A DNA stretch of 26,675 bases, from the IMG/VR virus record IMGVR_UViG_3300012933_000091, positions 1 to 26,675 of that record, one strand, 5' to 3'. Position numbers and translations under genes: made by a program. The stretch comes from a virus (Duplodnaviria; Caudoviricetes). Below the pieces are notes generated by a model that was given only the letters and a program-made list of their open reading frames with translations, did not search any database and was not told the origin of the DNA. Shown in pieces: positions 15,630 to 23,645 of the stretch (position 1 is its first letter; each line of letters begins with the position of its first letter).

Positions 15630-16079
15630 ATGTTAGTAGCAAAAATTGAAAATGGTATTGTTGTCACAGTGGCAGATTGCCGTGAACTGTGCGAATGGTA
15701 TCCACCAACTGAAGAACAATTGAATGACCGTGGACTTGTCCAAGTCAACGCATTTCGTTCTTATAATTCTTTAATTGAAAAACTTGTTTCATGCACTCCA
15801 GTTATTGAAGGTGATTGGGTTTATACAGTAGAGGTACAACAAATGACAGCAGAAGAAATCCAAGCAGCAAAAGATTCAGCAATGTCTCTATTACGATCAA
15901 ATCGTAATAACCTATTGTTGCAATCTGATTGGACTCAAATTCCTGATTGCACTTTGTCAAACAAAACTGAATGGGCAACATATCGCCAAGCCTTGCGCGA
16001 TTTCCCTGCTACAGTTGAAGATGCACGTTTACCAGTTGAATGGCCTCATAGCCCTGATTGGCAAGAAATGACTATGTAA
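15630..16079 (+). CDS. Tail fibre assembly chaperone-like protein
   Basis: C-terminal RNNLLLQSDWTQIPD...WATYRQALRDFP...EWP motif; AAGGAG SD. Confidence 0.85.
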   Translation: MLVAKIENGIVVTVADCRELCEWYPPTEEQLNDRGLVQVNAFRSYNSLIEKLVSCTPVIEGDWVYTVEVQQMTAEEIQAAKDSAMSLLRSNRNNLLLQSDWTQIPDCTLSNKTEWATYRQALRDFPATVEDARLPVEWPHSPDWQEMTM

Positions 16080-16096
16080 CAAGAAAGCAACAAGAT

Positions 16097-17251
16097 ATGA
16101 CAAAACAACTCAAGATAGCAGTCTACGCAATCAGTAAAAATGAGGAACAGTTCGTTGAACGATTCTGTAAATCAGCAAAGAACGCTGACCTCATTCTTAT
16201 TGCAGACACAGGTTCAACTGACAACACTGTAATCCTAGCCAAAGAAAACGGCGCTGTTGTTCACGACATTTGCATCAGCCCTTGGCGCTTTGATAAGGCC
16301 CGTGATACTGCACTGGCATTGATTCCACGCGACTTTGATGTGTGTATCAGCCTTGACTTGGATGAAGTCATGGAAGACGGCTGGCGTGAAGAAATTGAAC
16401 GGGTATGGAAAGACGATACAACCCGTCTGCGCTACAAGTTTGATTGGGGCTGTGGCATTGCGTTCTTCTATGAGAAGATTCACCACCGTCATGGCTATCA
16501 CTGGCATCACCCAGTGCATGAATACCCACGACCTGATGGCAGAACCAATGAGATTTATGCTCATACGGATATGTTGCTGGTTACGCATCTGCCAGACAAC
16601 ACAAAGAGCCGTGGTCAATATATGCCATTGCTTGAGTTGGCTATCAAAGAAGACCCACGTTGCCCACGCAATGCTTTCTATCACGCTCGTGAACTAACTT
16701 TCTATTGCCGTTGGGATGAGGCCATCATGTACTTGAACAAGTACCTTGAGATGCCAGAAGCCACTTGGCAGAACGAACGCTGCTATGCAATGCGGCTACT
16801 TGGTAAATCCTATGAACACCTTAATAACCACAATGAAGCAGAAAAGTGGTATCGCCTTGCTGCTGCTGAAGCGCCTAATACTCGTGAGCCTTGGGTTGAG
16901 TTGGCAATGCTTTCGTATCAGCGCCATGATTGGACTCAGTGTTATTTTGCGGCTTGCAAGGCGCTAGAGATCAAAGACAAAGCACTTGTCTACACAATGG
17001 ACCCAAGCGTATGGACTGAAAAGCCACACGACCTTGCCAGCATTGCTGCTTGGCATCTTGGCTTGAAAGAAAGTGCTTTGTTCCACATTGATGAGGCGTT
17101 AAAATTTGCCCCTGATGACGCTCGTTTGGTGTCAAATAAACAATTGATTCAAGGGGTGGATGATGGCAATGATCTCGGAAACGGAAGCGCGGTTGAACAG
17201 TCACGAGGCCGTCTGCGCCCAACGGTACGAAAGAATATCGGAACAGTTTGA
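16097..17251 (+). CDS. GT2-family glycosyltransferase with C-terminal TPR repeats
   Basis: IAVYAISKNE, DTGSTD, DxD motif (SLDLDE), VHEY, then TPR-like helices; likely start ATG 16097 (ORF is open from 16058). Confidence 0.92.
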   Translation: MTKQLKIAVYAISKNEEQFVERFCKSAKNADLILIADTGSTDNTVILAKENGAVVHDICISPWRFDKARDTALALIPRDFDVCISLDLDEVMEDGWREEIERVWKDDTTRLRYKFDWGCGIAFFYEKIHHRHGYHWHHPVHEYPRPDGRTNEIYAHTDMLLVTHLPDNTKSRGQYMPLLELAIKEDPRCPRNAFYHARELTFYCRWDEAIMYLNKYLEMPEATWQNERCYAMRLLGKSYEHLNNHNEAEKWYRLAAAEAPNTREPWVELAMLSYQRHDWTQCYFAACKALEIKDKALVYTMDPSVWTEKPHDLASIAAWHLGLKESALFHIDEALKFAPDDARLVSNKQLIQGVDDGNDLGNGSAVEQSRGRLRPTVRKNIGTV

Positions 17252-22084: not shown

Positions 22085-22870
22085 CTATGATACTTTGATG
22101 CGTTGAGCAAATAAACGCACACTATCTGGAATTGGTGTTGCTTTTTTGGCATCTGCTTCAATTTTGCGTAGGGCAGCATCTTGATTTGGTGGCGCAGGTA
22201 CAGTCACAGTTGCAACGTCATGCGGATTGATTCGGATTGCTTGACCAACCATCCAATCGGATTTAAATCCAGCCCAACCACGCTCACAACAAACAGACAT
22301 TACTTGTTCAAGTGTCATGTTTGCTTTTGCTGCTTCACGTTGTAATCCAGCAATAGCGGTATTTGTGATTGCTGCTTTCTTGGCTTTACGCAAAGAAACA
22401 AAATCATTCCAAACATCAACACTAACGCCTTCAGGCGCTGCAACGCTAGTTGCTTTCCTTTCCATTTCCCTTTCCTTTCCTTTCCTTTCCTTTCCAGTAG
22501 GTATGGCTACGGTAGTGGTCTGGTAGTCGCAAGGTAAATCGCATAAATGCTTGATTTTGCTTGGTGTTTTCTTGTTTATGACTTGATGTTTTTCAAAGTT
22601 TTTAACATGACCATAAGTCTTGCCATCTTCACCTTGAAAAAGGTCTAAATAACCAATCGTGCATAACTCCTGTATCAATACGGTAGTCTTTTTGGAAAGT
22701 TCCCGTAATGGAAAAATGTCAGATTCAACAAGTTTTGGGTTGGCATTAAAGTAACCTTCATCATCGCAATGGTTGAGCAATCCAATAGCCAAAAGACACG
22801 CTTCTGGTGATACCAAAGCCAATGATTCATCACGCCAAAATTCAGGTTTGATTGTTCTAATTCGTGCCAT
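22085..22870 (-). CDS. Phage replication initiator / replisome organiser
   Basis: MARIRTIKPEFW.DE N-terminus, GLLNHCDDEG, low-complexity linker, C-terminal WNDFVSLRKAKKA...GWAGFKSDW domain. Confidence 0.85.
   Translation of the reverse strand: MARIRTIKPEFWRDESLALVSPEACLLAIGLLNHCDDEGYFNANPKLVESDIFPLRELSKKTTVLIQELCTIGYLDLFQGEDGKTYGHVKNFEKHQVINKKTPSKIKHLCDLPCDYQTTTVAIPTGKERKGKEREMERKATSVAAPEGVSVDVWNDFVSLRKAKKAAITNTAIAGLQREAAKANMTLEQVMSVCCERGWAGFKSDWMVGQAIRINPHDVATVTVPAPPNQDAALRKIEADAKKATPIPDSVRLFAQRIKVS
22454..22536. repeat. Candidate replication origin: TTTCC tract plus four 11-bp-phased GGTA repeats
   Basis: 8 TTTCC units in 22454-22495 (5 in perfect tandem); GGTA at 22500, 22511, 22522, 22533; located in the initiator linker as for lambda ori within O. 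Confidence 0.6.
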
Positions 22871-22872
22871 GA

Positions 22873-23082
22873 TTATTCACCCTCACGTTTAACATAGATG
22901 CCTGTCCATCGTTCCTCTTGTTGGCGCATTAACTCGCCAGCCATGCTAAACATGATTCTTGTTTGGTCAGGTGTCAACATAAACATTGAATCGTGACCGC
23001 ATTCAAGGCATTCTTGTTTAATTACCAAATATCCTGCATCAGATACATAAATTTCTGTTTCATAAGAACTTTGTAACTTCAT
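22873..23082 (-). CDS. Hypothetical phage protein (CxxC)
   Basis: ATG 23082 preceded by GGGGT SD (ORF track extends to TTG 23088); directly upstream of the initiator. Confidence 0.7.
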   Translation of the reverse strand: MKLQSSYETEIYVSDAGYLVIKQECLECGHDSMFMLTPDQTRIMFSMAGELMRQQEERWTGIYVKREGE

Positions 23083-23093
23083 TTTCAAACCCC

Positions 23094-23203
23094 AAAAAGA
23101 AAACCCCTGAAAACCTGCGGTACTAGCACAAGTCTTCAGGGGTCAGCCGTTGAAGGCTTAGATGTATTCGTATCTAGTACATACGACACCTAAACCTTCT
23201 GAC
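23094..23203 (-). ncRNA. Two-hairpin leader RNA with complementary (kissing) loops ending in an intrinsic terminator
   Basis: Hairpin 1 at 23152-23199, loop GUACUAG; hairpin 2 at 23103-23143, 17-bp stem, loop CUAGUAC, followed by UUCUUUUU; G-U pairs are only valid on the - strand. Confidence 0.75.
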
Positions 23204-23207
23204 AAGA

Positions 23208-23237
23208 ATTATACACACGATTCCAAAGGCACATCAA
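23208..23237 (-). promoter_or_regulatory. Sigma70-type promoter driving the leader RNA and replication genes
   Basis: - strand TTGATG-18 nt-TATAAT at the 3' end of rusA; predicted start ~23201-23203. Confidence 0.65.
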
Positions 23238-23571
23238 TCAGAACTCGACAGCCGCCACCTTTTTGTTGTTCTTTTCGCACAATCAACAAACGGTCCACTT
23301 GACTATCATCATTAAACACGCCAGCCTGTGTAAGCGCATCAAGCAGTGGCTTGGCTATGTTGTCAATGTCACGAACTCGTTTGTCTGGCGGGTAAAGATG
23401 TATGGTCAGGCTCACCCGTTGAGCCTCAAAGCCTTTATGCTCTGAAAGGGCAAATGCCTCAAACACTTTGGCTTTGAACTGATTGGCCTTGGGTGTAAGG
23501 AAGCGTCTAGAGCCGTTGAAGTTCCAGTAGGTGTTAATACTAGGTGGGTACGGCAAAAAAAGATTGAGCAT
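23209..23571 (-). CDS. rusA: RusA-family Holliday junction resolvase
   Basis: LPYPPSINTYW, PPDKRVRDIDNIAKPLLDAL, DDSQVD catalytic motifs. Confidence 0.95.
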   Translation of the reverse strand: MLNLFLPYPPSINTYWNFNGSRRFLTPKANQFKAKVFEAFALSEHKGFEAQRVSLTIHLYPPDKRVRDIDNIAKPLLDALTQAGVFNDDSQVDRLLIVRKEQQKGGGCRVLIDVPLESCV

Positions 23572-23573
23572 GG

Positions 23574-23625
23574 TTGTAATAGATGGTTTAAGTGTGCTTA
23601 TAATACATCATCGCAACCACGCGAT
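23574..23625 (+). promoter_or_regulatory. Promoter for the recombination operon with 5' hairpin
   Basis: Perfect TATAAT at 23599-23604 preceded by TGTG; TTGTAA 19 nt upstream (non-optimal spacing); ATCGC-aaccac-GCGAT at 23610-23625. Confidence 0.55.
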
Positions 23626-23645
23626 ACATCGAAAAGGAATTAAAC

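Follow-up and report, generated by a model that had tools for sequence, protein, structure and literature searches.

What could a short leader RNA, whose two hairpins carry loops that are perfect complements of each other, do in front of the replication genes of a phage? The question is raised by a viral record of 26.7 kb, estimated to be ~71% complete; the window referred to below is the whole analysed stretch of 26,675 nucleotides. In this record tail and lysis genes are followed by a replication arm on the minus strand and by a divergent recombination arm on the plus strand, which encodes Sak, a MazG-like protein, a YqaJ exonuclease and SSB. A glycosyltransferase-like gene (16058-17251, plus strand; phrog_13126, E 1e-98) is located between the tail and lysis genes.

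The element occupies the space between a rusA-like Holliday junction resolvase gene (23209..23571, minus strand; phrog_34, E 1e-33; PF05866) and an ORF of 69 amino acids, with the initiator gene next in line. The 69-aa ORF, which starts at ATG 23082 behind an SD-like GGGG at 23093-23090 (together 22873..23093, minus strand), is the first gene of the operon; its function is unassigned, it has no family match in Pfam or PHROG and belongs to an unnamed viral cluster of the Atlas (score 0.93), and its four viral relatives do not have the element at their loci (0/4). The second gene (22085..22870, minus strand) encodes a replication initiator with an O-like C-terminal part (phrog_1408, E 2e-41; phrog_678, E 6e-17). 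Within it, three copies of a 17-nt repeat of the GGAAA type (22450-22498) are possibly a linker-coding tract or a part of the origin. The 74 bp that separate rusA from the recombination arm (window 23572-23645) correspond to the place of cI in lambdoid phages and contain only a short inverted repeat (23609-23626) and no repressor gene.

Anatomy of the two-hairpin leader

The first-pass annotation of this DNA had described a promoter, two hairpins, an 8-nt linker, an SD and an ATG on the minus strand, and a check of the sequence finds all of them in place. The sigma-70-type promoter (23208..23237, minus strand) is formed by the -35 box TTGATG (23237-23232), an 18-nt spacer and the -10 box TATAAT (23213-23208), the latter including the rusA stop codon TAA (23211-23209). 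With 10/12 it is the best of seven promoter matches between 19.3 and 26.7 kb, a number of matches that does not exceed the average of 11 in shuffles. Judged from the spacing to the -10 box, transcription is likely to start near A23200.

Hairpin 1 (23152..23199, minus strand) comprises 19 bp, divided into a 14-bp lower stem and a 5-bp upper stem by a 3-nt bulge on the 3' side, and its loop 1, GUACUAG (23174..23180, minus strand), follows the family pattern G-N-N-N-N-A-G. The linker of 8 nt (23144..23151, minus strand) ends in the sequence-conserved GGCUG and leads into hairpin 2 (23103..23143, minus strand), whose 17-bp stem is the longest terminator in the terminator scan and is predicted to act as an intrinsic terminator. 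Loop 2, CUAGUAC (23120..23126, minus strand), is the exact complement of loop 1; the U-tract of the predicted terminator covers 23094..23103 (minus strand), and the SD lies 3' of it, outside both hairpins. The region folds with -53.6 kcal/mol (z -6.5; none of 200 shuffles was equally stable), and its five non-Watson-Crick stem pairs, two in hairpin 1 and three in hairpin 2, are all G-U on the minus strand, as had been read at first. The stems of hairpins 1 and 2 are not complementary to each other in the alignment, and therefore the loop-loop pairing ends at 7 bp.

A pairing of GUCAG at the 5' end with CUGAC at the base of hairpin 2, which had also been suggested, does not hold up, as it can be formed in only 14 of 57 relatives and the probable start near 23200 leaves most of GUCAG upstream, outside the transcript. 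Some further candidates were set aside. An alternative AGCC/GGCU hairpin across the linker is a possibility on paper; its columns barely vary, both of the variants break it, and it is thus unsupported. The motif CCCUGAA, which we take to resemble lambda boxB, forms no boxB hairpin, and the comparison with HK022 put, an RNA element with two stems, was dropped with two stems as the only common feature.

A covarying RNA family and its carriers

Relatives of the element were gathered through DNA patterns, protein-anchored searches, alignment and a covariance model, which together yielded 63 distinct full-length relatives (57 and 6 later ones) in phage and metagenome contigs, one cut-off copy being excluded; these variants are related sequences and do not count as independent events. 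Whether the loops of relatives would vary and yet stay complementary had been named as one check of the loop pairing, and the answer is clear: the 7-nt loops are perfectly complementary in 63/63 relatives, in the form of 14 covarying alleles, most of which differ at two or more of the seven pairs. In the alignment of 42 distinct relatives the loop-loop helix is Watson-Crick in 294/294 cells, without G-U, and compensatory change is found at 4/7 positions, so that the perfect complementarity noticed in the window is far beyond chance. The stems behave similarly in these 42 rows: 97.6% of cells are paired in the lower stem of hairpin 1 (compensatory change in 7/14 pairs), 99.0% in its upper stem (4/5 pairs) and 98.0% in the stem of hairpin 2 (7/17 pairs). 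The scores of the whole structure were matched by none of 500 shuffles, and slid controls were 34-45% paired; covariation scores of this kind are inflated by kinship, and the search patterns already contained some of the invariant sequence.

Because this pattern content made the conservation in the alignment circular, each hairpin was also searched for separately. The pattern for hairpin 2 alone retrieved 22 distinct elements, all of them with hairpin 1, and the linker, which is not part of that pattern, reads GGCUGAC in 21 of the 22. The pattern for hairpin 1 alone, in which the loop and everything downstream were unspecified, gave 37 distinct matches, and in 35 of these loop 1 is followed at 30-34 nt by its exact complement; one of the remaining two is cut by the contig end and the other is a chance match. 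A pattern scan of metagenomes produced 104 matches (70 distinct), and 25 passed the filter; among the 45 distinct matches that failed it one is a real element (L350) and the others are due to chance.

The architecture around the helices is equally constant. The loop-to-loop spacing is 51-57 nt in 56/57 elements, the outlier being a parser error (loops GGACUAG/CUAGUCC). A -10-like box precedes hairpin 1 by at most 22 nt in 55/57 elements, in 53 of them by 7-9 nt, against a background of 8.7%, and in all 57 the 9 nt that follow the stem include eight or nine T. In every one of the 57 elements the sense strand folds more stably than the antisense strand, and 252 of their 2070 predicted pairs are G-U. 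Two parts are conserved in sequence beyond what pairing requires, namely the UUAG/CUAA stem segment of the lower hairpin 1 with its U-G pair, and the linker GGCUG.

The search against Rfam, likewise envisaged from the start, gave no match for the window and otherwise only a chance miRNA match (E 0.38); the elements of eight relatives had none, with one unrelated weak GcvB match elsewhere. A copy in GenBank MW202710.1 stands before an initiator-like gene and has no RNA annotation. Full-text literature searches did not find a description of the element; the Weinberg 2017 alignments and parts of Fremin 2023 (PMC10690425) may contain it. Comparative sequence analysis thus identifies the element as a real, strongly covarying RNA family, absent from Rfam, ahead of phage replication operons. 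The initial proposal of an RNA-level element with a predicted terminator at its end, here ~105-110 nt long and located ahead of replication genes, is in this respect borne out by covariation, U-tract and position.

The carriers look like lytic or non-integrating phages as judged from their gene content. Tyrosine integrase (PF00589) was found in none of 18 carriers, 11 of which are at least 90% complete; S24 peptidase (PF00717), HTH_3 (PF01381) and resolvase (PF00239) were found in none of 12, and the 11 near-complete carriers have none of the four. When 126 selected non-structural ORFs of four complete genomes were compared with PHROG, neither CI nor integrase was detected. Since the carriers are without integrase and CI-type repressor, lysogenic immunity is doubtful, and the role in lysogenic copy number or immunity that had been considered at first is weakened; a plasmid-like or carrier state of these phages may exist. 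The complete carrier G004 has a phrog_478 gene labelled recombination directionality factor (L359:11860-12237, minus strand), and an integrase was not found in it.

The host did not emerge from these searches. The exact element pattern had no match in GTDB genomes, a covariance-model search of the best 80 of 538 initiator loci in GTDB had none either, plasmids gave only chance matches to the element, and the search for SSB homologues pointed to no host. Ten sequencing runs had small shares, and the four of them examined contained short assembled contigs only, for which an origin from DNA is possible; runs X3 and X4 share the same 193-nt contig at equal depth and are probably one data set. Neither transcription nor habitat can be read from these contigs.

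The slot behind rusA

What occupies the same place in closely related phages? Among 18 closer rusA relatives the slot contains the element in two, an int-alpA/IsrK-like RNA in three (two of them above the Rfam cut-off), another loop-target terminator RNA in three and nothing in nine, and one is truncated. All three types of RNA are found behind rusA genes that are 88-96% identical to that of the window, and the nine relatives without RNA in the slot indicate that the element is dispensable in this lineage. The first genes after the element, inspected at the N-terminus for 57 elements, belong to many unrelated families, several initiator types among them, and the loop alleles are not linked to particular first genes; those scanned for families are initiators, HNH or unassigned ORFs. 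According to these comparisons of sequence, the element moves as a cassette and is swapped for other leader RNAs in the same slot.

Proteins of 59-74 aa with an E-T-E/K-V-like motif are often encoded by the first gene (window 22873-23082, minus strand; L006, L195, L261, L263, L379); they have no Pfam or PHROG match and belong to an unnamed viral cluster of the Atlas. The slot RNAs other than the element have peculiarities of their own. One, without an Rfam match (L005:2868-2975, L007, L010 and L161:1400-1506, plus strand), has a hairpin loop UUGGCGG that matches CCGCCAA in a branched terminator and a further site that covaries (CACAGU/ACUGUG versus CGUAGU/ACUACG); its 5' arm is similar to the linker and 5' terminator arm of the element, and it resembles the a-b sites of c4/CI. 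The sequence UUGGCG is named as the target loop of ColIb-P9 in a title cited by PMC10724649. The int-alpA/IsrK-like RNAs (L008:1480-1580, L009:828-896, L014:670-736, L149, L152, L171-L173, L175, L180, L181, L183 and L188) have, as seen by eye, a variable loop and two covarying complementary downstream sites, the second of which overlaps the SD of the first gene.

In 5 of 32 searched records the element is present twice (four lineages; L361:17655-17537 and 15325-15209, minus strand; L482; L483; L484; L485/L486), and the alleles differ in each pair, which the allele frequencies lead us to expect by chance about half the time and which is not significant. The two copies are ~2.3 kb apart in one operon in G006, G010 and G026, and G014 has a second, more diverged copy 4.7 kb downstream. 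No diversifying selection on the loops is evident; the allele is shared by 5 of 10 pairs that are at least 85% alike downstream, including the three closest.

Possible role of the loop-loop helix

The predicted terminator is strong in 57/57 elements and the start codon follows directly, and therefore something must permit read-through. No nested antiterminator appears in the prefix folds. Own-allele heptamers are not enriched outside the element, where 22 were counted against 32.3 expected from other alleles in 298 kb of flank (mostly ~1.5 kb per side), which offers no third target site; a -10-like box in antisense orientation is found in the 60 nt downstream of 14/57 elements against a background of 22%, which gives no conserved promoter. 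Considering these results, and that the SD is beyond the U-tract, the loop-loop helix is the only conserved interaction that could reach the terminator, and the loop-to-loop spacing of 51-57 nt is the geometry that a constraint in cis would require.

We propose, with somewhat better than even confidence, that the element is an RNA-only attenuator in which pairing of loop 1 with loop 2 in cis would prevent closure of the terminator base and so allow read-through into the replication operon. From a start near 23200, hairpin 1 would fold first, the 5' arm of hairpin 2 staying free, and loop 2 would pair with loop 1 on leaving the polymerase. As hairpin 2 zips down, the tether would shorten to 8 nt, making the kiss and the pairs adjacent to the U-tract mutually exclusive, and the race between the kiss and the last terminator pairs would set the fraction of read-through. 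In a rod model, which is crude and has assumed angles, and in which hairpin 1 could fray instead, the cis kiss is reached in 0.3-2.4% of conformers when hairpin 2 is fully zipped, in 19-30% when 4 bp of it are open and in 100% when 8 bp are open. Kissing complexes are described as bent, end-to-end stacks (PMC2602780, PMC6832290). If the loop pairing in cis is in competition with the base of the terminator, as this model implies, it would antiterminate. The covariation would be the same for cis and trans, and for a kiss that promotes or blocks termination, and the conserved GGCUG linker and the lower hairpin 1 are outside what the cis kiss explains.

A separate step in trans, suggested by analogy, is put forward more tentatively, at somewhat below even probability. 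The terminated RNA of ~105 nt, with hairpin 2 zipped and loop 2 free, would cap loop 1 of new transcripts; termination would thereby be restored and the operon shut down as genomes and RNA accumulate, or, alternatively, a co-infecting phage with the same allele would be blocked.

Among known RNAs, the guanidine-IV riboswitch (GGAM-1 or mepA motif) comes nearest to this scheme. There, a rigid kiss is proposed to stretch the linker so that the outer terminator pairs fail and read-through follows (PMC7736828), and P2 elongation hinders the kiss (PMC11611296); this steric mechanism is a proposal that has been probed by smFRET (PMC7736828, PMC11611296). In both RNAs the loop of a 5' hairpin is the complement of the loop on an intrinsic terminator hairpin, in our case as indicated by covariation. 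However, guanidine-IV of L. lactis has a 5-bp P1, a 4-nt loop, a larger P2 loop and invariant ligand-binding bases (PMC7736828), whereas the element has a hairpin 1 of 19 bp and two loops of 7 nt, fully paired with 4/7 pairs varying, and implies no ligand; guanidine-IV precedes guanidine-related genes (sugE/mepA-type), and the element precedes phage replication genes. The element is mechanistically closest to guanidine-IV, yet it is outside that family.

The systems named as analogues in the first-pass annotation, P4 CI, P1 C4 and IncI/IncB, were rightly not equated with the element, each of them departing from it in defining features. The c4 RNA of P1/P7 is derived from a leader, has self-complementary sites and controls premature termination ahead of replication genes. 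In purpose the element is similar to the P4 CI RNA (seqA/seqB/seqC), which is likewise a leader-derived, self-complementary RNA linked with premature termination ahead of replication genes and which terminates P4 transcripts (PMC4825925). Unlike both P4 CI and P1 c4 (RF01695), the element has no second downstream target, folds neither as a cloverleaf nor with multiple branches and is limited to a kiss of 7 bp, and there is no sign of a temperate lifestyle in its carriers; the c4 Rfam model did not match it at gathering or E-value thresholds. IsrK (Gifsy-1)/int-alpA (RF02996) occupies the same promoter-proximal slot and combines a short terminated RNA with a read-through mRNA, as predicted here, but it has a three-way junction and loop targets near the SD, with IsrK acting mainly on translation, whereas the element consists of two simple hairpins; the RF02996 model matches L009 and L014 and does not match the window element, L006 or L011. 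By analogy, IsrK indicates that the opposite sign in trans, activation, is possible.

The IncI/IncB rep pseudoknot, the pT181-type attenuators and ColE1 RNAI/RNAII also involve loop-loop recognition and a replication gene; they are countertranscript systems with extended complementarity, whereas in the element both partners are on one strand and pair over 7 bp at most. The IncI/B pseudoknot frees a sequestered SD. These plasmids act on translation, in contrast to the element, whose SD is outside both hairpins and not sequestered. Titles cited in PMC10724649 speak of competition between the cis pseudoknot and a trans antisense RNA, and fully complementary loops are shared by ColE1 (PMC2602780) and the element.

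How do other explanations compare with the cis kiss? The closely kept stem lengths and loop spacing fit better with a constraint in cis than with a kiss that is solely intermolecular, in which terminated RNA would bind nascent transcripts, without a cis role, and either enforce termination (exclusion as in P4 CI) or relieve it (genome counting as in IsrK). That reading draws on the steric rarity of a full cis kiss in the finished RNA of the rod model, on the 14 alleles, most of them at least two of seven pairs apart, and on the int-alpA/IsrK-like RNA in the slot of relatives; furthermore, a motif of the type named YUNR opens loop 2 in 13/14 alleles and is broken in one. IsrK and CI are themselves trans-acting (PMC4825925). 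With no third target site found (22 versus 32.3 heptamers) and integrase and CI-type repressor absent in the 11 near-complete carriers, we regard a purely intermolecular kiss as rather unlikely. It is quite unlikely that the element is a sensing switch, in which a small molecule, an ion or a host or phage protein would bind the linker and lower hairpin 1 and stabilise the cis kiss. The topology is the same as in guanidine-IV, and the conservation of GGCUG and of UUAG/CUAA with its U-G pair beyond pairing needs would suit a binding site, but this conservation may reflect recent ancestry in a narrow family, all seven loop bases are paired and 4/7 vary freely where guanidine-IV requires invariant loop bases, and the first genes downstream are mixed replication-module genes of no metabolic class.

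The short RNA could also be a product in its own right: by assembling itself head to tail in dimers, rings or filaments, it would serve as a decoy, a scaffold or a stable small RNA, and the terminator would merely end it. Such a rod, which carries complementary 7-nt loops at its two ends, does resemble the unit of RNAI/RNAII nanorings (PMC6832290), and the predicted terminator is strong; nevertheless, the element always stands between a promoter and an SD with a replication-module gene, a place that an independent small RNA would not need, and it moves like a cassette, with other leader RNAs taking its place, which makes this explanation improbable. Highly improbable is a feature of the DNA (a cruciform, an origin or a recombination site) or an ordinary terminator that happens to have a hairpin upstream. 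Although both hairpins are inverted repeats at a recombination-prone spot of the replication module, the promoter distance is fixed and the complementarity of the loops is compensatory, and at the level of sequence the strand asymmetry, seen in the fold stability of all 57 elements and in their G-U pairs, together with the covariation largely refutes this reading already.

Returning to the attenuator, the element shares its topology with guanidine-IV and may by analogy share its purpose with P4 CI or IncI. In its widest form the proposal is that one short RNA, needing neither protein nor ligand, serves as both lock and key: the kiss in cis would antiterminate, terminated copies would poison it in trans through a 7-letter address, and phages without a repressor would in this way limit their own replication and exclude co-infecting kin according to allele, the element being one of three interchangeable RNA address cassettes for a single promoter slot. 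As a whole this scheme is possible but doubtful. If the attenuator model is true, phages without N- or CI-type proteins would gate replication by an RNA of ~105 nt as a purely mechanical switch, and a kiss that strains a terminator is a mechanism so far described for a riboswitch that responds to a ligand. With the 14 natural alleles, short templates and E. coli polymerase would allow direct tests of specificity, of superinfection exclusion and of action in cis or in trans, and synthetic biology would find in these alleles a ready set of candidate orthogonal attenuators. That three unrelated loop-target RNAs are exchanged for one another in a single slot suggests that address codes made of RNA form a general layer of control, so far overlooked, among environmental phages.
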